DNA of 64,000 nucleotides, taken from assembly GCA_017465575.1 (NCBI GenBank), contig JAFTVX010000015.1, forward strand, positions 15,835 to 79,834. The letters are read 5' to 3'. The notes under the pieces were generated by a model. It saw nothing but the letters and a program-made list of their open reading frames with translations, was not told where the DNA came from and ran no database searches. A program made the position numbers and the translations under genes. The DNA is from Alistipes sp. (lineage in GTDB: Bacteria; Bacteroidota; Bacteroidia; Bacteroidales; Rikenellaceae). Positions 2,920-64,000 of this stretch are shown piece after piece (the stretch's first letter is position 1; every line of letters begins with the position of its first letter).

Positions 2920-2951
2920 GAGCAAAGATTTTCGGGTCTTTGCTCTTTTTT
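2920..2951 (+). terminator. Rho-independent terminator of the S46 peptidase gene
   Basis: Stem GAGCAAAGA (2920-2928) / TCTTTGCTC (2937-2945) followed by T6. Confidence 0.8.
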
Positions 2952-3045
2952 AGTTGTTAGTTTTTAGTTATTAGTTATTAGAGAAATTCCGCTAAAAAAA
3001 CATTTTAACTCATTTTAACTCTTCGTAACCCATTTTAACTCATTA
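2950..3045 (+). repeat. A-type intergenic word repeat (copy 2)
   Basis: TAGTTGTTAG/TTAGTTATTAG words, then the TCCGCTAAAAAAACATTTTAAC core, then three CATTTTAACTC words. Homologous to 747-830 and 51106-51182. Confidence 0.8.
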
Positions 3046-46391: not shown

Positions 46392-46559
46392 ATGTCACTT
46401 TTCAGAGTTATTCTTTCGATTTTGTTTCCACCCTTGGCGGTTATCGACCAGGGCTGTGGCTCGTTTGTTATCGTCTTTCTGCTCACGCTCCTCGGCTGGG
46501 TGCCAGGCGTATTGGCAGCGCTGATAATATTGAATAATACTAATGAGCGCAGTCAATAG
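46392..46559 (+). CDS. Pmp3/YqaE (UPF0057) family small membrane proteolipid; not in the supplied ORF track (<60 aa)
   Basis: Hand translation gives MSLFRVILSILFPPLAVIDQGCGSFVIVFLLTLLGWVPGVLAALIILNNTNERSQ*. This has two TM helices and the LPPLAV...LLT.LGW.PG...A signature of Pmp3/YqaE proteins. Confidence 0.8.
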   Translation: MSLFRVILSILFPPLAVIDQGCGSFVIVFLLTLLGWVPGVLAALIILNNTNERSQ

Positions 46560-46664
46560 TGAATTTAGGGAAATTAGGGAATTTAGTGAAGTTAAGGAAA
46601 GCGCTACCGACATTTATCCCAAAGCTCACTACACTCCCTAAACTCATTAAACTCCCTAATAAAC
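46545..46664 (+). repeat. D-type intergenic word repeat (copy 1): TTAGGGA words - AGCGCTACCGACATTTATCCC core - TCCCTAA words
   Basis: About 88% identical by eye to 62115-62228. Homology starts at GCGCAGTCA, inside the last codons of the pmp3-like gene. Confidence 0.8.
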
Positions 46665-46681
46665 TACTTTCCACCCAGCAC

Positions 46682-46806
46682 ACTTTCTTGTCAAAAGTCG
46701 TGAGATGTGGTGCCAAATGAAAACTCCTCGGATGGGACATACTGAGCGTATTTCCCATTCGGGGAGTTAAGTTTGGTGCCGCAGATTGCGGCTTTTCACA
46801 AGAAAG
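46682..46806 (-). mobile_element. B-type MITE-like palindromic element (diverged copy)
   Basis: Termini CTTTCTTGTC...CACAAGAAAG. Central hairpin CTCCTCGGATGGGACATAC-N5-GTATTTCCCATTCGGGGAG shares the invariant core with the other copies. Confidence 0.7.
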
Positions 46807-46811
46807 AACCC

Positions 46812-46939
46812 AATTTGTCGTCAAAAGGGGTTAGGCTTGGCTCATCGCAAAAGGGAGAGCCTCGGGATAGTACACATTAGTACAGCCCGAGGCTCTCAAC
46901 TTTTGGGATGGGTCGAGAATGACCCCTTTTCACGGCAAA

Positions 46940-46941
<2 letters not shown>
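46812..46941 (-). mobile_element. B-type-related palindromic element (subfamily with a different central hairpin)
   Basis: Termini AATTTGTCGTCAAAAGGGGT...ACCCCTTTTCACGGCAAATT. Central perfect 12-bp stem GAGAGCCTCGGG/CCCGAGGCTCTC (46855-46897). The terminal TT plus the next A form the TAA stop of the esterase gene. Confidence 0.7.
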
Positions 46942-48148
<1,207 letters not shown>

Positions 48149-48174: not shown

Positions 48175-48499
48175 CGAAAAAGAAATTAGCTTTCATCACT
48201 TGTGAGGATATTTCTTGCAAAAGGTAGCTGTTAAAGGTGCATCATTATGATGCCAAAGATACAAAGTATTTGATTAATATATCACAGGTGTAACCTAAAA
48301 AATCTTTCAGATAGTCTAATCTATTCTATATCAGTACCTTAATGGTCAAACGCATTATTCATAATATTCGCTAATTCCCACTAGCCCAATGAGTTAAACC
48401 ATTTAACTAGGCACGGGTCAATATTGAGAACGGTCTGTTACACTTGGAGCATATTAATCAAATTTTCGCTAAAAAATAATTGTTTTCTGCCAAAATATT

Positions 48500-48537
48500 A
48501 ATCCCCAAAGCGTGTCCGAGGACAAACTTTGGGGATT
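48500..48537 (-). terminator. Terminator hairpin downstream of the LRR lipoprotein gene
   Basis: 11-bp perfect stem AATCCCCAAAG/CTTTGGGGATT, 20 nt after the stop codon, followed on the minus strand by an AT-rich U-tract (AATATTTTGG). Confidence 0.65.
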
Positions 48538-48556
48538 AAATTCGAGAATCACTTAT

Positions 48557-50173
48557 TTAAAAGTTATAACCCTCGATTTGGTCTGCATAGGTCAACCAAT
48601 TGCTTGCTTTCTTATACTCCTCCACCGATTCGACAGGTACATAAATCTTGCAATTCAGATTTTGGTGCTCGTTGTCGGTAAATACCCAATAACTCATATC
48701 GGGAGGCGTCGTTGCCTTCACATAGACGGTTTTGAGGTTGGTACAACCCGCAAAAATCTGCGAATCGATTTGCCCAATCGATGCAGGCAATGTAATGGTC
48801 TCCAAGCTGACGCAATTACCAAACATACGATCCGTAAGTCGGGTGATGCCCTCGGCAAACTCCACAATTTTCAGACTGGTACAGTCGTAGAAAATCATTC
48901 CCCCCAGGCTCGTTAGCTGACCCTTGATCAACACCGTTTCGAGCGACGTACAAGCGCGGAAAGCATATGCGTCAATTTGGTATACATTTTCGGGAATTAT
49001 AATGCCTTTCAAACCATCGCAAGCGATAAACGCACCTTCGCAAATTGTGCGCAACGAGTTCGGCAAAGCCACCTCCTCAAGATTATCTTTATCATAGAAG
49101 ATATGATAAGGCAACTGCGTCACTTCGCCACTAAAGTGCTTCACGCGACAACATCCACCAGGGTTGTAATCGTACTCGAAAATCGATTCTGTACCGTCAG
49201 CGTTAGTACCAAAAACGCGAGTTCCATAACCCTCCACATAGAAATCTATAAACTGATTGGTATCTGGAGACTTCGATTTATACCACAGCTCATTGTTTGC
49301 CGGACCGTTAAACATAGGCTTATAAGCCGCCATGAGCTTAGCTGTATTGCGTGAAACCGTCAGTTTTTTGTTGGTGGATTGGGTATCCATTTGATTCTGG
49401 GAATTGACCGTCATGATGGTAATACCCTTCTCGAAGGTTACGGGAGGGAGCACAAACCAAAACTCGGTGGGGTTCTCCTTGTCGTTGCTGAGCGTCACAC
49501 CCTCACCGCAGTCAATCGTCACCTCTCGGCTTCCACCCTCTGCCATCATCAGCGAAGGGGTGTAACCATAGCGAGCCTCTGCCGTTGCGTTGCCGGCCAA
49601 CACCTCGCCGTTATTGCCGGCCAGGGTGATCGACGCAATGGTCGTGTTCTCGCCATAGAGTTTGACCACCAGGTAGCCACCTACGCTACGGAAGGGGAGT
49701 ATATCGCTTTGAGCACTCTCGGCAGCAGCCACCATGACATTGGCACTCGGGCCATAAGAGTTCTTGGCATAGTACTGCATAGCGGGCATGGTCAGCGAAA
49801 TCTTCTCCTCTGCATCGAGCGTAGCGGCAGCATCACAGGGATAGAGCGCATAGGTCGTAGAGATTGCATCGCCTACCGAAGTGTCGGCCGACTCGGATTC
49901 ATCGCGCGTAAAGCTACCCTCGAAAGCGCCCGTATCGCCATCGAAGTTGAAACGCTCATTGCGCGTCGTGCGGAATACCGAAATGCTATCCTTGGCATGC
50001 CAGCACTGTCTGCGTTGCTCGTCAAGATAGGTGCGGCTCGCCGGGTCGCTCTCGGTAATTGTAGCATAATATTTCACCTCATCCGTAAGGAGAAAATGTT
50101 CCTCCGTAATCGACACCTCGGAGCACGAGGTAAAGGCACAAAGGAGGATAAAAAGGGTAAAAATCTTCTTCAT
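48557..50173 (-). CDS. BspA-type leucine-rich repeat surface lipoprotein
   Basis: The ATG at 50173 gives a lipoprotein signal (MKKIFTLFILLCAFTSCSE). The C-terminal half has LRR_5/BspA-type repeats (I.EGAF..C..L..I.IP..V..I...AF..C.SL). It looks more AT-rich than its neighbours by eye. Confidence 0.8.
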   Translation of the reverse strand: MKKIFTLFILLCAFTSCSEVSITEEHFLLTDEVKYYATITESDPASRTYLDEQRRQCWHAKDSISVFRTTRNERFNFDGDTGAFEGSFTRDESESADTSVGDAISTTYALYPCDAAATLDAEEKISLTMPAMQYYAKNSYGPSANVMVAAAESAQSDILPFRSVGGYLVVKLYGENTTIASITLAGNNGEVLAGNATAEARYGYTPSLMMAEGGSREVTIDCGEGVTLSNDKENPTEFWFVLPPVTFEKGITIMTVNSQNQMDTQSTNKKLTVSRNTAKLMAAYKPMFNGPANNELWYKSKSPDTNQFIDFYVEGYGTRVFGTNADGTESIFEYDYNPGGCCRVKHFSGEVTQLPYHIFYDKDNLEEVALPNSLRTICEGAFIACDGLKGIIIPENVYQIDAYAFRACTSLETVLIKGQLTSLGGMIFYDCTSLKIVEFAEGITRLTDRMFGNCVSLETITLPASIGQIDSQIFAGCTNLKTVYVKATTPPDMSYWVFTDNEHQNLNCKIYVPVESVEEYKKASNWLTYADQIEGYNF

Positions 50174-50193
50174 TGCACACATTCGCTTTAGGT

Positions 50194-50337
50194 TTACCAC
50201 TCGGTATCGGTGTCCGGGATGATTGGATCATCGGTCGGGTCGTTCGGGTTGGGATCAATGCTACCAGCAAAGCCCTGCTCTACATTTACTTTAATCAACT
50301 CCAACTCGGGAGCTTGATACAAAAACTGTTTCTTCAT
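50194..50337 (-). CDS. 47-aa hypothetical small protein upstream of the LRR lipoprotein gene; not in the ORF track
   Basis: Hand translation gives MKKQFLYQAPELELIKVNVEQGFAGSIDPNPNDPTDDPIIPDTDTEW*. It ends 21 nt upstream of the LRR gene ATG on the same strand. Coding status is not proven. Confidence 0.45.
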   Translation of the reverse strand: MKKQFLYQAPELELIKVNVEQGFAGSIDPNPNDPTDDPIIPDTDTEW

Positions 50338-50380
50338 ACTCTATTTTATAGTTGTTATAATATAAATTAGTTGTTATCAT

Positions 50381-50433
50381 AAAAAAAACGACAAATCGCA
50401 CCCCTTTTCCGATGCAATTTGTCGTTAAAAAAA
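50381..50433 (-). terminator. Strong intrinsic terminator inside the leader region upstream of the small ORF/LRR operon
   Basis: 10-bp perfect stem AACGACAAAT/ATTTGTCGTT (50387-50396 / 50417-50426). On the minus strand it is followed by T8. The A/T runs on both sides make it bidirectional in form. Confidence 0.7.
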
Positions 50434-50489
50434 GACTATTTATGACGAGCCGCAACAACGGCTTCTCGCACACTACACTGCGCTAAGTA

Positions 50490-50498
50490 CCCCCCCCC
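50490..50498. repeat. Homopolymeric C9 (G9 on minus strand) tract
   Basis: Nine consecutive C residues, located between the minus-strand -7 box (50559-50566) and the terminator at 50381-50433. Confidence 0.9.
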
Positions 50499-50558
50499 TC
50501 AACAACTTACGGTCATTGAGGTCGAATTTGGTATATGTGCACAACTCTTTCATCGGTG

Positions 50559-50566
50559 CAAAGATA
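50559..50566 (-). promoter_or_regulatory. -7 box TATCTTTG driving minus-strand transcription toward the G9 tract, terminator, small ORF and LRR gene
   Basis: Reverse complement of CAAAGATA, divergent from the plus-strand box at 50580-50587. Confidence 0.5.
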
Positions 50567-50579
50567 GAAATTTTTTTTG

Positions 50580-50587
50580 TATATTTG
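50580..50587 (+). promoter_or_regulatory. -7 box TATATTTG for the metallophosphoesterase gene
   Basis: TAnnTTTG 31 nt upstream of the ATG at 50618, preceded by TTTG at about 50577-50580. Confidence 0.55.
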
Positions 50588-50617
50588 CCTAACAAATGGC
50601 ATTGATTTAGCAAGAGA

Positions 50618-51106
50618 ATGAAGATAGGCATAATTTCTGATACGCACGGAACATTCGACAAGGTGTTGCAAGATTTCCTACAGCCTTGCGATGAGGTATG
50701 GTGTGCAGGCGATTTTGGCTCAACGGAGGTTGCCGATAAGATTGCCCAGTTTAAGCCTCTGCGTGCCGTATATGGCAATATCGATGGCGATATTGTCAGG
50801 CGTATGTATGGCGAATTTTGCTTCTTCGAGGTCGAGGGCGTCAAGGTGCTGATGACACACATCGGTGGTTACCCTCGCAAATATGCACCCAAGGCTCTGC
50901 AACATATCCACGGCGCTCGCCCCAAGATTTTTGTTGCGGGACACTCGCACATCTTGAAGGTTATCTACGACCCCGTGTACGATCTTCTGCATATCAACCC
51001 CGGTGCTGCGGGCAAGTATGGCATTCACAAGGTGCGCACCGCCGTAAGGTTTGATATCGAGGCAGGCGAGATAAAGAATATGGAGATTGGAGAGTGGGAG
51101 AAGTAG
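50618..51106 (+). CDS. Metallophosphoesterase family protein (YfcE/MJ0936-like)
   Basis: MKIGIISDTHG, GD..., GNID(C)D and GHSH motifs. 162 aa. Confidence 0.85.
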   Translation: MKIGIISDTHGTFDKVLQDFLQPCDEVWCAGDFGSTEVADKIAQFKPLRAVYGNIDGDIVRRMYGEFCFFEVEGVKVLMTHIGGYPRKYAPKALQHIHGARPKIFVAGHSHILKVIYDPVYDLLHINPGAAGKYGIHKVRTAVRFDIEAGEIKNMEIGEWEK

Positions 51107-51182
51107 TTATTAGTTGTTAGTTGTTAGTTATTAGAACTTCCGCTAAAAAAACATTTTAACTCATCGTAACCCATTTTAACCC
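51106..51182 (+). repeat. A-type intergenic word repeat (copy 3)
   Basis: Starts at the stop codon of the metallophosphoesterase gene. It reads TTATTAGTTGTTAGTTGTTAGTTATTAG + AACTTCCGCTAAAAAAACATTTTAAC + TCATCGTAACCCATTTTAACCC. Confidence 0.8.
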
Positions 51183-51228
51183 ACAAAGCGAAAGAGAAAA
51201 AAACAAAGCAAAGATACATTAACTGACT

Positions 51229-54460: not shown

Positions 54461-55487
<1,027 letters not shown>

Positions 55488-55489
<2 letters not shown>

Positions 55490-55612
55490 TTTCTTGTGAT
55501 AAGGGGTCTACTTCGGCCTCTCAGTCAGAAGCCCGAATGGGAAATACGCCAAGTATGTCCCATCCGGGCTTCTTCGTGTCGAGACCAAATTAGACCCCTT
55601 CTGACAAGAAAT
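55488..55612 (+). mobile_element. B-type MITE-like palindromic element (type copy)
   Basis: TIRs AATTTCTTGTGATAAGGGGTCTA / TAGACCCCTTCTGACAAGAAATT. Central hairpin GAAGCCCGAATGGGAAATAC-GCCAA-GTATGTCCCATCCGGGCTTC. The first AA overlaps the gapA TAA stop. Confidence 0.8.
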
Positions 55613-55810
55613 TGGCGGAGTGCTGACTGGGAGGTTGGTTGCGCTCCGATGGAGCGCCAGCTAACGCTGAGGGGTCTGAGGGGTACAAGGGGCACAAGGG
55701 GTAGTGTTTTCCGAGACGCTTAATTAGCGCTCTGCCGTTGGCCTCTTGTGCCCCTTAGAACCCTTTTAACCCTTAGGGCGTAGCCCGCAGGCGAAACGCC
55801 TGCTCTCTCT
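55613..55810 (+). repeat. Structured repeat module following the B element (GCGCTC hairpin, GGGG/CCCC word hairpin, GCAGGCG hairpin)
   Basis: Homologous in inverted orientation to 59681-59904. Shared blocks are TGCGCTC..GAGCGCCAGCTA.CGCTGAGGGG, GGCACAAGGGG and AGCCCGCAGGCGAA.CGCCTGCTCTCT. Confidence 0.75.
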
Positions 55811-59620: not shown

Positions 59621-59649
59621 AAAAAAAGAGCCTTTCGGGGCTCTTTTTT
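59621..59649 (+). terminator. Terminator of the met operon
   Basis: A-run, stem AGAGCC/GGCTCT with a TTTCGG loop, then T6. Located 18 nt after the hom stop. Confidence 0.8.
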
Positions 59650-59680
59650 GTTAGTTGTTAGTTGTAAGTTTTTAGTTGTT

Positions 59681-59904
59681 AGAGAGCAGGCGGTTCGCCT
59701 GCGGGCTATAGCCCCAAGGGACAAAAGGGGTCTAAGGGGTAAAAGGGGAGGTAAGGTTAGTAAAAGCATCGCTGGTCTTACCCACCTTGAGGTTAGTCGC
59801 CACGCTCTAACTCCCCTTGTGCCACTCGTGCCACATGTACCCCTCAGCGATAGCTGGCGCTCGGAACGAGCGCAGTCTACCTCCTTCCAGCTCTGCACTC
59901 TGCC
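59681..59904 (-). repeat. Structured repeat module (inverted copy of 55613-55810)
   Basis: Contains AGAGAGCAGGCGGTTCGCCTGCGGGCT, GGGG/CCCC word arms, CCCCTCAGCGATAGCTGGCGCTC..GAGCGCA. Preceded by TTAGTTGTTAG words (59651-59680). Confidence 0.75.
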
Positions 59905-60032
59905 AATTTCTTGTCAGAAGGGGTTAGATGTGGCCTCGATAAAGAAATTGCCCTGGATGGGACATACTTGAAGTATTTCCCATTCAGGGCAATGATTGAG
60001 AGGTCGCAGATGACCCCTTATCACAAGAAATT
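59905..60032 (-). mobile_element. B-type MITE-like palindromic element
   Basis: AATTTCTTGTCAGAAGGGGT...ACCCCTTATCACAAGAAATT. The central hairpin keeps the invariant core but has a covarying basal stem (ATTGCCCTG/CAGGGCAAT). The terminal TT plus A form the pfk TAA stop (60031-60033). Confidence 0.8.
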
Positions 60033-61263
60033 ACCAGTTGAGGATCTTCTTGAAGTCATACTCCTCAGGGTTGGGGAGGTATGCCTTTGCTGCCTCATAG
60101 TCAGCAGGTGTGATGTAGTGCATCAAGTTGTCGATAACCTGGTGAATCTTGTCGGCGTTGATGTCAACAAGGCGAGGAGGAATCTTGCCTGTCTCGGGAT
60201 CCTGCAAATCCTTGAGGTAGAGAGGCGAAACATAGCCCTCCTGGCTGATGTATACCATACAGCCGGTCTTGCCCTCTGAGAAGAGCTTGTAGACACCCAT
60301 ACCGAGCTGTGAGCAGTATACAAGGTCGAAGGCGCAAGGTGTCTGGCAGCGTACCTCGTAGCCAATCTCCACGGGGCGCGACTTAACCTTGAGACCGAGA
60401 GCCTTGCAACGCTTCTCGAGCAAGGTGTTGAACATCTCGGCCTTAGATACCTTACCGAGCTCGGGGTGGCCGTGGTCGTCGTACGAGAAGTTGATGCCCG
60501 ACTTGAGAATCTCCTCCTGGTCGAGAGCGTGGAATACACCCTCCGAAACCATTGCTACACCATAGTCCATATTGATAAGCTTACGCTTAACGATAGCCGA
60601 GATGATAAGATTGATAATCTTTTCGATAGTAATCTTTGTCTTGTTGAACATCTCGGGAATGATAATCATAGGATAGTGGCATGCCGAAGCGATACCGAAG
60701 GCGAGGTGACCTGCCGAGCGACCCATCGCTGCAACAACAAACCAGTTAGCCGAGGTGCGCGCATCGTTATATACGGCACGACCGATTACCGCGCCAGCGT
60801 TCTTTGCCGACTGATAGCCGAATGTAGGCATACCTGCGGGCAAGGGAAGGTCGTTGTCGATAGTCTTAGGAACATGGATGTTGGCGATAGGATACTGCTT
60901 GCGCTCCAAGAACTTAGCGATGCGGTTAGCAGTAGAAGCGGTGTCGTCGCCACCCACGGTTACGAGCAACTTTATGTTGTTCTCCTTGAAGAAGTCAAGA
61001 TTAAAGTTCTTCTCGAAATCCTCCTCCGAGGGCTTGAAACGGCTCATTGTAAGGTACGAGCCACCCTGGTTGAAGATGTAGTCTACGCGGAACATATCGA
61101 GGTCCTCGTAGCGGGGGTTAGGGTTGAAAAGGCCCGAGTAGCCATAGTGCAGACCGATAACACGGTAGCCCTTAGCAAGGAAAGTCTTGGCAACAGAGCC
61201 AACAACGGTGTTCATACCAGGGGCAGGACCGCCACCTGTGAGAATTGCAATAGCCTCTTTCAT
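60031..61263 (-). CDS. pfp: Phosphofructokinase family protein, probably PPi-dependent (diphosphate--fructose-6-phosphate 1-phosphotransferase)
   Basis: GGGPAPGMN, PKTIDNDL and MGR motifs. A GGDD motif replaces the GGDG of ATP-dependent enzymes, which is the classical PPi-PFK signature. 410 aa. Confidence 0.75.
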   Translation of the reverse strand: MKEAIAILTGGGPAPGMNTVVGSVAKTFLAKGYRVIGLHYGYSGLFNPNPRYEDLDMFRVDYIFNQGGSYLTMSRFKPSEEDFEKNFNLDFFKENNIKLLVTVGGDDTASTANRIAKFLERKQYPIANIHVPKTIDNDLPLPAGMPTFGYQSAKNAGAVIGRAVYNDARTSANWFVVAAMGRSAGHLAFGIASACHYPMIIIPEMFNKTKITIEKIINLIISAIVKRKLINMDYGVAMVSEGVFHALDQEEILKSGINFSYDDHGHPELGKVSKAEMFNTLLEKRCKALGLKVKSRPVEIGYEVRCQTPCAFDLVYCSQLGMGVYKLFSEGKTGCMVYISQEGYVSPLYLKDLQDPETGKIPPRLVDINADKIHQVIDNLMHYITPADYEAAKAYLPNPEEYDFKKILNW

Positions 61264-62114: not shown

Positions 62115-62228
62115 GCGCAGTCATTAGAGAATTTAGGGAGATTAGGGAATATAGGGAAGTTAGGGAGAGCGCTACCGACATTTATCCCTAAGCACGCTAC
62201 ACTCCTTAAACTCCCTAAACTCCCTAAA
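62115..62228 (+). repeat. D-type intergenic word repeat (copy 2)
   Basis: GCGCAGTCATTAGAGAATTTAGGGAGATTAGGGAATATAGGGAAGTTAGGGAGAGCGCTACCGACATTTATCCCTAAGC...CTCCCTAAACTCCCTAAA, homologous to 46545-46664. Confidence 0.8.
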
Positions 62229-62254
62229 AAATCACCTTCCAAGCGGTAAGACTC

Positions 62255-62381
62255 AATTTCTTGTCAGAAGTGGTCTAATTTGGTCTCGACACGAAGAAGC
62301 CCGGATGGGACATACTCTTGCGTATTTCCCATTCGGGCTTCTGACTGAGAGGCCGAAGTAGACCCCTTATCACAAGAAATT
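62255..62381 (-). mobile_element. B-type MITE-like palindromic element (near-identical inverted copy of 55488-55612)
   Basis: The reverse complement of 55488-55612 differs only at GGGG->GTGG and in the loop (ACTTGGCG vs ACTCTTGCG), by hand alignment. Confidence 0.85.
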
Positions 62382-62419
62382 AAATTTTTGATTAGAAGGC
62401 TGCATATACAACGCTCGGC

Positions 62420-62474
62420 AAAAATCCCGACGATGGGCTGTACTATGGCGTACTGCTCATTGTCGGGACTTTTT
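62420..62474. terminator. Bidirectional terminator downstream of nifJ/PFOR
   Basis: Stem TCCCGACGATG/CATTGTCGGGA (one mismatch) with a 22-nt loop, an A-run on the left and T5 on the right. Lies about 40 nt after the nifJ stop on the minus strand. Confidence 0.7.
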
Positions 62475-62510
62475 GTTAGCGGCAGTAGATGTCTGCCTTA
62501 TAATCGAAAA

Positions 62511-64000
62511 TTATTTCGTTCTATTGATATACGAGTTATATCGCCACTTAGCATTCTCCTCTGCTGCCTCGAAGAGTTGCTCTGCCTCCTCGGGGAATGC
62601 CTTCTGGAGTGAGGTGTAGCGTACCTCCTTCATAAGGAATGCACGGAACTTCGACCAGTCGGGCTCCTTAGAGTCCATCACGAAGGGGTTCTTGCCCTCA
62701 GCCTCGAGCTGGGGGTTGTAGTGCCAGAGGTGCCAGTAACCACACTCAACAGCCTGCTTACCGATGGTCTGGGTGCGGGTCATACCGCCCTTGATACCGT
62801 GGTTGATACAGGGAGCGTAGGCGATGATGAGCGAAGGACCGGGATATGCCTCAGCCTCCTTCAAGACATTGAAGAGCTGCTGCTGTGAAGCACCGATAGA
62901 TACCTGTGCAACATATACATAGCCGTAGGTCATCGCAATAGCGCCGATATCCTTCTTGCGGATGCGCTTACCTGCCGAAGCGAACTTAGCAACAGCGCCC
63001 ACGGGGGTAGACTTCGACGACTGACCGCCGGTGTTAGAGTAAACCTCGGTATCGACGATAAGGATATTTACATCCTCGCCCGATGCCAAAACATGGTCTA
63101 CACCACCGAAGCCGATATCGTAGCCCCAGCCGTCACCACCGAAGATCCACTGCGAACGCTTAACGAGCCAATCCTTGTACTCAAGGATAGTGCGGCAGTA
63201 GTCGCAGTCGCAAGCCTCAACCAAAGGCAAGAGGCGAGCGGTAACCTCGCGTGAAGCGGCAGCAAGGTGACGAGCATCAATCCACTCCTGCATTACGCCC
63301 TTGAGCTCATCTGAGCAGCAGTTGCACTCAGCGATAGCCTTGCGCATAACATCCTCCAAGCCCTGACGAATCTTCTCTACGCCGACACGCATACCGAGAC
63401 CGAACTCAGCGTTGTCCTCGAAGAGTGAGTTAGCCCAAGCGGGACCCTGACCCTTAGCGTTGGTGCAGTAGGGGGTAGAGGGTGCCGAACCAGAGTAGAT
63501 AGAGGTACAGCCCGTAGCGTTAGCAACCATCATACGGTCGCCAAAGAGCTGTGTGATAGCCTTGATATAGGGTGTCTCACCGCAACCAGCACAAGCACCC
63601 GAGAACTCGAACAAGGGCTGTGAGAACTGGAGGTTCTTAACAGACTTGGTCTTGTCTACATGCTCGGTGTAGCCGATATTCTTGGTGATGTAATCCCAGT
63701 TCTTAGCCTCCTTTGCCTGCTCGGCCAAAGGACGCATAACGAGAGCCTTCTCCTTAGCGGGACATACATCGACACAGTTGTTACAGCCAGTACAATCCAT
63801 AGGCGACACCTGAATGCGGAACTTCAAAGCCTTGGTCTCGCCCAAGCCCTGCTTCCACTCTGCACCCGATGCTGCAGCCTGCTCCTCGGTAGCGAGGAAG
63901 GGACGGATAGCAGCGTGGGGACATACATAGGCACACTGGTTACACTGGATACAGTTCTCGATCTTCCACTCGGGAACTGCGGTAGCGATACCACGCTTCT
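62511..64000 (-). CDS. nifJ: Pyruvate:ferredoxin (flavodoxin) oxidoreductase, C-terminal part (gene continues beyond the window end)
   Basis: Has the 4Fe-4S motif CTGCNNCVDVCP, the TPP-binding GGDGWGYDIG motif and a C-terminal domain. The reading frame stays open to position 64000. Confidence 0.9.
   Translation of the reverse strand, partial: KRGIATAVPEWKIENCIQCNQCAYVCPHAAIRPFLATEEQAAASGAEWKQGLGETKALKFRIQVSPMDCTGCNNCVDVCPAKEKALVMRPLAEQAKEAKNWDYITKNIGYTEHVDKTKSVKNLQFSQPLFEFSGACAGCGETPYIKAITQLFGDRMMVANATGCTSIYSGSAPSTPYCTNAKGQGPAWANSLFEDNAEFGLGMRVGVEKIRQGLEDVMRKAIAECNCCSDELKGVMQEWIDARHLAAASREVTARLLPLVEACDCDYCRTILEYKDWLVKRSQWIFGGDGWGYDIGFGGVDHVLASGEDVNILIVDTEVYSNTGGQSSKSTPVGAVAKFASAGKRIRKKDIGAIAMTYGYVYVAQVSIGASQQQLFNVLKEAEAYPGPSLIIAYAPCINHGIKGGMTRTQTIGKQAVECGYWHLWHYNPQLEAEGKNPFVMDSKEPDWSKFRAFLMKEVRYTSLQKAFPEEAEQLFEAAEENAKWRYNSYINRTK

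Follow-up and report, generated by a model that had tools for sequence, protein, structure and literature searches.

What are the palindromic repeats that overlap the stop codons of several Alistipes genes, and how have they come to lie there? The question is raised by a 64,000-nt stretch of the Alistipes sp. contig JAFTVX010000015.1 (positions 15,835-79,834 of GCA_017465575.1; hereafter the window), in which an initial annotation, made from the sequence alone, had described five copies of a hairpin repeat beginning at 46682, 46812, 55488, 59905 and 62255. All five were found where they had been placed, and a sixth that had been overlooked lies directly behind the 62255 copy, ending on the TAA of the gene for PFOR. 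The copies belong to a large family of hairpin repeats with a length of ~128 nt (125-131 nt), which we interpret, at a probability of roughly 0.55, as small non-autonomous mobile elements resembling REPIN and ERIC. The six copies in the window, with their predicted folding energies, are as follows.

46682-46808, + strand: hairpin element of subtype a with degenerate termini (ACTTTC...AAGAAAGAA), first in a two-copy array; -76.6 versus -50.2 kcal/mol.
46812-46942, + strand: hairpin element of subtype b with a different tip (GGGATAGTAC..GTACAGCCC); its 3′ TTA (46940-46942) is the stop of the esterase gene; -86.2 versus -63.2 kcal/mol.
55487-55612, - strand: hairpin element of subtype a; its 3′ TTA is the reverse complement of the gapA stop TAA (55487-55489); -75.8 (- strand) versus -65.4 kcal/mol (+ strand).
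59905-60033, + strand: hairpin element of subtype a; its 3′ TTA (60031-60033) is the stop of pfp on the - strand; -74.7 versus -55.8 kcal/mol.
62255-62382, + strand: hairpin element of subtype a, first in a two-copy head-to-tail array.
62383-62513, + strand: hairpin element of subtype c (GATGGGCTGTAC..GTACTGCTCATTG); its 3′ TTA (62511-62513) is the stop of the PFOR gene; an identical copy at locus L001 folds at -66.1 kcal/mol.

Every one of these copies forms a single long hairpin, and the fold z-scores of -7 to -16 against dinucleotide shuffles mean that the hairpins are not due to chance. The core that had been called invariant (GATGGGACATAC/AATGGGAAATAC, or GATGGGACATAC-N5/6-GTATTTCCCATTC when the four copies are aligned in a common orientation) is exact in just the four copies named for it. 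The 55488 and 62255 copies, described as nearly identical, agree at 98-100% over both arms, and the compensatory differences listed for the stem are seen in the alignment as well as in the folds. The open reading frame (ORF) list likewise bears out the overlap of the terminal AATT with the stop codons of gapA (54473..55489, +), pfp (60031..61263, -) and the esterase gene (46940..48124, -). Common termini, which had been ascribed to all copies, are seen in the alignment, although those of the 46682 copy are degenerate.

Outside the window, a pattern built from the two termini matches at least 114 genome-contig stretches, all of them from Alistipes sp. or Rikenellaceae metagenome-assembled genomes (MAGs). 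Among the matches listed, the named sources are mostly ruminant hindgut samples, and the GapA protein of the window is itself matched on ruminant-gut metagenome contigs. Two rounds of nhmmer over the window and 119 loci (0.9 Mb, from many MAGs) yielded 240 copies, 186 of which are unique and full-length. Clustering at 85% identity divides these into 36 groups, many with a single member, and one architecture is common to all. Near-identical copies are present at unrelated loci, and recent and old copies occur side by side in the family, as had been proposed from the five copies alone. An Rfam search of the window, which the initial annotation had not linked to any Rfam family, gave nothing at the gathering threshold; in E-value mode only chance matches to miRNA-like hairpins appeared (≤22 bits versus thresholds of 57-80). 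Neither a blastn search against phages and plasmids nor a pattern scan of viral contigs returned a match to the element, and we found no description of the hairpin family in the literature on repeats that overlap stop codons or on REP elements and miniature inverted-repeat transposable elements (MITEs) of Alistipes and Bacteroidetes. The repeat family is real and well supported and, as far as these searches show, undescribed; in the collections searched it is confined to an Alistipes/Rikenellaceae clade.

Many copies are located at the contig ends of MAGs, within positions 1-140 or the last bases (L029, L049, L080, L093 and other loci). This suggests that the repeats break short-read assemblies, and copy numbers taken from MAGs are therefore likely to be underestimates. 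The repeats probably confuse the annotation of gene ends in Alistipes as well.

The architecture shared by the family starts with a basal stem of 10 bp, followed by a 3x3 internal loop (CAG/ATC) that holds a C·C mismatch; further up are a second stem (AAGGGG../..CCCCTT or a variant), loops that contain AGAT, middle stems that vary and a common tip, GATGG..RTAC-loop-GTAY..CCATT. The ends, internal loops and tip are conserved, whilst the intervening stems are variable yet kept paired by compensatory changes. The element is nonetheless asymmetric: the C·C mismatch in the 3x3 loop near the base is conserved, and a non-hairpin tail of 15-20 nt stands on the 5′ side. We aligned 118 diverse copies with MAFFT on sequence only, with no fitting to structure, and predicted a consensus with RNAalifold. 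The terminal inverted repeats (AATTTSTYGT/ACRRSAAATT) are conserved in these copies as part of the full-length hairpin. Of the 35 predicted pairs, 29 have pair-keeping changes on both sides, and double changes reach even the basal stem, where one pair is CG in 61 copies and GC in 45. Of the cells, 93.5% are paired, versus 75.8% after shuffling and 43-49% when the partners are slid by 1-3 columns; cells with a double change number 661, versus 212 and 111-207, respectively. None of 500 shuffles attained any of the five pairing measures observed, these two included. Moreover, within clusters of at least 85% identity the compensated double change is the commonest class of stem substitution (111 distinct events). 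The proposal of a real dispersed repeat family with a covarying hairpin thus stands.

The strand that reads AATTTCTTGTCAGAAGGGG...CTTATCACAAGAAATTA, which in every window copy has the stronger predicted fold, is here called the better-folding strand. Where a gene could be called 3′ of this strand, 140 of 146 arrays (~96%; an array here being one or more adjacent copies) face the end of a gene on the opposite strand. The exact position of the stop codon was tallied for the 130 arrays that lie next to an ORF of at least 100 codons. In 76 of these (58%) the stop is made up of the T before the element and the element's first two As (TAA); in 48 it lies 1-17 nt upstream; in four the ORF runs into the element and ends with TGA (+10) or TAG (+13); and in the remaining two the stop is further inside or beyond the element. 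The fixed orientation and stop-codon overlap noticed at three genes of the window therefore extend over 114 further loci. The single - strand copy of the window suggests that orientation goes with the genes rather than with the replichores, which, if general, would exclude lagging-strand targeting of the IS200 type. Where the stop is 1-17 nt upstream, a partial duplicate of the first 6-12 nt of the element is often found between the two (TAATTTCTT|GAATTTCTTGT). A short target word cannot explain this placement, because 739 TTA, 248 ATTA and 106 AATTA sites in the spacers beside the arrays are left unused. The 20 abutted genes that were sampled are core genes, including those for PPi-PFK, ObgE, CdaA, KdsC, TrkA, PckA, TamL, FabG, EF-P, IF-2 and FolC, to which the window adds GapA, PFOR and the esterase.

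An alternative explanation is a host-selected RNA module rather than a parasite, that is, a hairpin kept at gene ends for a function there, whose spread would be due to recombination or conversion among copies. Within the sense transcript it might serve as a stabiliser in the 3′ untranslated region (UTR), or might slow termination and translation immediately behind the stop codon, as do REP and ERIC in enterobacteria. In antisense it might form a near-perfect double-stranded RNA hairpin by which transcripts that enter the gene backwards are halted or destroyed. The positional and orientational regularity is extreme and exceeds what short target words explain, the same gene ends are occupied in different species, the genes abutted include gapA, pfp, PFOR, pckA, EF-P and IF-2, and compensatory changes go on within young clusters. 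The strand on which pairing is constrained is, however, the antisense one, and further points on both sides come from its asymmetry and from the terminators of the abutted genes.

In the window, one strand of every copy folds 10-26 kcal/mol better than its complement, and in 6/6 copies that strand is antisense to the abutted gene, a feature that the initial annotation did not notice. Across the family, the better-folding strand has the stronger fold in 175 of 186 unique copies, with a mean difference of -14 kcal/mol. Its minimum-energy structures contain 833 G·U pairs versus 26 single A·C mismatches, whereas unselected transitions would be expected to give the two in about equal numbers. Recent substitutions within clusters lean the same way (54 from a Watson-Crick pair to G·U versus 23 to A·C), with the exception of subtype c, in which they are without bias (11 versus 10). 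The fold asymmetry is the same next to a co-oriented upstream gene end (-12.5, n=41) as next to an upstream gene start (-13.8, n=37), which makes it a property of the element rather than of local read-through transcription. We conclude that a single-stranded form of the better-folding strand, either single-stranded DNA (ssDNA) or RNA, is what is recognised or selected.

Two other origins of the asymmetry were considered and set aside. Transcription-associated deamination predicts a bias on the sense strand, opposite to that observed, and the bias is also independent of context. Selection on read-through RNA from convergent genes would apply to just 61 of 114 arrays, the far side of the other 53 being the start of a downstream gene, and the asymmetry is the same in both contexts. 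The idea of an independent small RNA gene with a promoter of its own was also dropped, since the Bacteroidetes promoter motif (TTTG..TAnnTTTG) has no full match upstream on the better-folding strand in 148 flanks, versus seven on the opposite strand. Some of this also tells against a host-selected module: besides the lack of that motif and the context-independent asymmetry, 53 of the 114 arrays have no co-oriented upstream gene able to transcribe the constrained strand.

A strand asymmetry of the G·U type is also what an RNA intermediate predicts, and the element might accordingly be the template of a reverse transcriptase (RT), the RNA of one strand being reverse-transcribed and the copy integrated. 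This would be akin in spirit to the UG27 RT non-coding RNA (ncRNA) arrays, whose ~135-167-nt hairpin units, with a pseudoknot and AUCN7UANAG/UUYA motifs, are found in Bacteroidota prophage RT loci (bioRxiv 10.64898/2026.09.22.753630). Like the elements described here, those units are diverse in sequence and conserved in structure, and the truncated units of stub and tail described below stop at a defined point of the hairpin. On the other hand, neither the pseudoknot nor the motifs of UG27 were found by eye, the UG27 arrays lie inside prophage loci whereas our elements are dispersed at the ends of housekeeping genes, and there is neither a match to phages or viral contigs nor an RT gene in sight nearby. 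We regard such a retro-element as a most improbable explanation.

Copies are frequently stacked. Besides 124 single copies there are 40 pairs, two triples and three quadruples, and adjacent copies are head-to-tail in 53/53 cases, with gaps of -4 to +27 nt that are mostly ≤8 nt. A gap of -4 corresponds to a shared AATT, which is seen at 11/53 internal junctions. A semi-conserved tail outside the hairpin (...AGCACNACCY|AATTT) lies ahead of the first copy in an array, and a leader with a small hairpin (CAGCGTAGCTGTCGCTTGGAACAAGCGAAACAGACACAAAC...) is often present upstream of the tail. In addition, 5′ stubs of 22 nt of the element, each with a tail, occur upstream of full copies, sometimes in tandem (L020, L105). 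Together with the remnants of 9-12 nt at the stop codon, these stubs suggest that units of tail plus hairpin insert into the base of resident copies. In the two tandem cases (L020:1178-1272 and L105:5761-5903), mini-units of ~47 nt, composed of the first 22 nt of the element and ~25 nt of tail, are repeated two to three times upstream of a full copy.

These junctions bear on the suggestions that the elements are MITEs and that AATT is a 4-bp target-site duplication. A classical MITE would have arisen by deletion from an insertion sequence whose terminal inverted repeats it retains; it would be moved by a DDE transposase and insert at AATT or TA with duplication of the target. The conserved inverted termini and the AATT shared at some internal junctions are compatible with this, and the size is typical of MITEs (PMC3184786, Table 1). 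The duplication itself could not be demonstrated, since on the 5′ side there is the conserved tail instead and AATT is shared at just those 11 junctions. The label also fits poorly because conservation and compensation extend along the full length of the element and not just its terminal repeats; full-length pairing with a G·U strand bias is not required by double-stranded cut-and-paste. Moreover, the orientation is strictly gene-relative, no longer element with the same ends exists in the 0.9 Mb (the orphan ends being 22-nt stubs only), and phages, plasmids and viral contigs gave no match. A DDE-dependent MITE is thus very unlikely.

The occupants of a given gene end change quickly. In strain L003, whose identity to the window is 97-99%, a different module and two other subtypes take the place of the entire hom-pfp intergenic region. 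Which subtypes occupy the orthologous ends of pfp, PFOR, obg and other genes varies from MAG to MAG. Behind PFOR a single copy is found in L042; in the window a further copy separates this one from the stop codon, and two others are present in L082. Relatives of gapA in other metagenomes (≤85% identity) are without the element and have an ordinary terminator, a hairpin and T-tract 20-60 nt after the stop. In the window, by comparison, no T-tract follows the hairpin and no terminator-like site coincides with its end on either strand; terminators with a T-tract are instead found at 55787-55803 and 59622-59649. The suggestion that the element is a terminator module thus does not hold in the classical sense. 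As the terminator-like sites are found only beyond the element and its accompanying module, the element would be inside the 3′ UTR, which, like the normal terminator of relatives, is in keeping with a host-selected module. The missing T-tract argues against that explanation, and the rapid turnover of subtypes, the stubs and the tandem stacking resemble the dynamics of insertion. On balance we consider a host-selected module, the main rival explanation, possible, if on the unlikely side.

The coordinates of two differences between strains are as follows. The convergent hom/pfp intergenic region (59649-60006 in the window, L003:11200-11566) is swapped for unrelated repeat modules between flanking genes of 97-99% identity. 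A 2.4-kb segment at 48181-50618 of the window, with a gene for a 538-aa LRR_5-domain protein and a 47-aa ORF, is present in L001, L002 and L004 and absent from L003 and L005, which are 97% identical, and is therefore a strain-level insertion or deletion.

With this in mind, we favour the reading of the repeats as REPIN/ERIC-like mobile elements. The element would be copied or moved in trans by an enzyme encoded elsewhere, which would recognise the better-folding strand when it is folded and single-stranded, be it ssDNA or RNA. Integration would occur in a fixed orientation at 5′-T|AATTT next to a TAA stop codon or, alternatively, at or inside the base of a resident copy, recreating the same junction, which would explain the arrays. 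After insertion the element would make up the first ~130 nt of the 3′ UTR in transcripts of the gene, and the weaker hairpin of the sense strand, interrupted by A·C mismatches, may still protect or modulate the end of the mRNA. Such a mechanism accounts for the many dispersed copies and their subtypes, for turnover, arrays and stubs, and for the conserved motifs of protein-binding size and the pairing on one strand.

Several observations weigh against it. We infer mobility, as no strain pair showed it directly: a clean pair of empty and filled sites was not recovered between near-identical strains, the gapA relatives being ≤85% identical and blast searches with joined flanks being mostly confounded by tandem copies, with the PFOR end of the window and L042 as the one informative comparison. 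No target-site duplication could be defined, as the 5′ flank is a conserved tail and not a repeat of the 3′ flank. The mobilising enzyme and the RNA or DNA nature of the intermediate are likewise deduced: clustering of 676 neighbouring ORFs revealed no enriched recurrent protein, and no transposase, integrase or RT family, and tblastn with one IS200 TnpA and one RAYT-like query found nothing in the window or the Alistipes/Rikenellaceae loci (~0.9 Mb). The earlier statement that no transposase is present thus holds for the surroundings of the elements in the window and the sampled loci. The G·U excess could in part be inherited from a few master copies and not selected at each locus, and that many of the sampled abutted genes are central housekeeping genes could point to function over parasitism. 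Lastly, mobility alone does not explain the choice of gene ends. Their occupation requires either a targeting step specific to gene ends or selection for a function there, two possibilities that are not mutually exclusive. If it is targeting, there would be recognition of gene ends at the DNA level beyond short sequence motifs; if selection, the family would be a widespread 3′-end module in an abundant, poorly studied gut genus.

A bolder form of the targeting idea is that the elements are substrates of an undescribed system of site-specific single-strand recombination or retro-insertion, which homes just 3′ of stop codons and adds ~128-nt units head-to-tail. It might use DNA made single-stranded where translation uncouples from transcription. 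We think this doubtful; if true, it would mean a new class of mobile hairpin with gene-end targeting, and it could show how attC-like sites come behind genes, since the units resemble attC in size, architecture, folded strand and position. The elements might even be attC-like sites themselves, the folded better-folding ("bottom") strand being read by a tyrosine recombinase that adds or exchanges units at gene ends, as integron integrases do with attC. Their length of 125-131 nt is one that attC sites can have, conserved features of the base and internal loops enclose a variable but paired middle, the folded strand is antisense to the preceding ORF, the site begins at the stop of that ORF, and units in head-to-tail arrays are exchanged at the same site. 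However, inspection of the consensus by eye shows no RYYYAAC/GTTRRRY boxes, the neighbouring genes are not a co-oriented cassette array but core housekeeping genes of either orientation, and no integrase was seen near any array. An attC-like site is, in our judgement, highly improbable.

More distally upstream of the arrays there are other repeated modules, which are hairpins of short repeats. The 3′ intergenic regions are therefore mosaics in which the hairpin element is one module. The further parts of these mosaics in the window are listed below.

46547-46673, + strand: upstream mosaic module (TTAGGGAnn repeats, GCGCTACCGACATTTATCCC, nnTCCCTAA repeats), preceding the 46682 array; 87% identical to 62115-62241.
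55613-55657, - strand: 5′ tail and small leader hairpin upstream of the gapA copy on its better-folding strand; the tail reads, in reverse complement, ...CAGTCAGCACTCCGCC, and the hairpin GCGCTCCATCGGAGCGC is at 55641-55657.
59857-59904, + strand: leader of the pfp copy, with a small hairpin (GCGCTCGGAACGAGCGC, 59857-59873), a C/A-rich linker and the tail ...CAGCTCTGCACTCTGCC; an inverted copy of 55613-55701.
62115-62241, + strand: second copy of the TTAGGGAnn/nnTCCCTAA module, preceding the 62255 array.

The TTAGGGAnn/nnTCCCTAA module, of ~127 nt, precedes two-copy arrays at three different gene ends, its third copy being at L003:11213-11333. Another module, of ~200 nt, accompanies the gapA and pfp copies as inverted copies (55613-55800 and 59690-59904). 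It has G-rich (GGGGTCTGAGGGGTACAAGGGGCACAAGGGG) and C-rich short-repeat arms and a GCAGGCG-loop-CGCCTGC hairpin, and forms with the hairpin element a composite repeat of ~340 nt. A different intergenic repeat, often located downstream of a gene's terminator, is found at 735-831, 2932-3042, 51099-51183 and 59633-59685; it consists of runs of the heptamer TTAGTTG and variants, followed by a conserved core AGAAATTCCGCTAAAAAAACATTTTAACTCA and TTTTAACYCA repeats.

Small palindromic intergenic repeats are a known kind of sequence, of which REP, REPIN, ERIC and Correia are examples, and the elements can be compared with each. REPINs, doublets of REP sequences that form hairpins, are mobilised by RAYT transposases (Bertels & Rainey 2011, PMC3116915). 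They resemble our elements as non-coding, dispersed extragenic repeats of ~100 nt that form hairpins, exist in several "flavours" per genome, build clusters when new copies enter or adjoin resident ones, and are believed to be moved as single strands by a single-copy enzyme encoded elsewhere. The elements thus agree with the REP/REPIN kind in being a many-copy hairpin-forming extragenic repeat that clusters by insertion. In contrast to REPINs, however, the consensus has no GTAG/CGTC-type tag beside a palindrome of 20-40 bp and forms a single ~128-nt hairpin with no substructure of two REPs, and the two tblastn queries detected no RAYT or IS200-like gene in the ~0.9 Mb. Clusters of REP sequences in enterobacteria (BIMEs) alternate in orientation, whereas those described here are strictly head-to-tail and locked to stop codons.

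The 127-bp ERIC/IRU elements of Enterobacteriaceae and the Correia elements of Neisseria (reviewed in PMC3184786) are nearly the same length, are imperfect palindromes and often lie at the 3′ ends of genes. They are transcribed together with these genes, and the long RNA hairpins that they form influence the stability of the mRNA. They differ in having TA target duplications and both orientations, where our elements have no definable duplication, 96% of one gene-relative orientation, a stop codon shared in 58% and an antisense better-folding strand. There is also no sequence similarity; with no match in Rfam, phages or plasmids, all matches to our elements are in Alistipes or Rikenellaceae. 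With the UG27 ncRNA units they share the organisation in arrays of sequence-diverse, structure-conserved hairpins with short conserved motifs in internal loops, as well as the host phylum. They differ in being chromosomal, dispersed and abutted to stop codons, with no match on viral contigs and no UG27 motif found by eye in the consensus.

The attC sites of integrons (e.g. the VCRs of ~125 bp) are characterised by their size, folded strand, conserved base and placement at an ORF stop. All of these are shared, as are the variable paired middle, the antisense position of the folded strand relative to the upstream ORF, and tandem units of the same orientation. The R and L boxes (RYYYAAC ... GTTRRRY), compared by eye with the published consensus, are absent from our consensus and aligned copies, and the elements, which have neither integrase nor cassette array, are dispersed after core metabolic and translation genes on both strands. 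BIMEs of E. coli and NIMEs of Neisseria are intergenic mosaic elements, and here too the hairpin is one module in a mosaic of short-repeat hairpins, small leader hairpins and tails; the module sequences and their grammar differ. We know of no small palindromic repeat that combines stop-codon sharing, ~96% fixed orientation, head-to-tail stacking and antisense-only pairing. The elements of Alistipes combine all four: stop-codon sharing that is precise to the base in most copies, ~96% gene-relative orientation, strict head-to-tail stacking, and pairing kept on the antisense strand only. Their novelty thus lies in an unusually strict stop-codon placement and strand asymmetry within a known kind of repeat.

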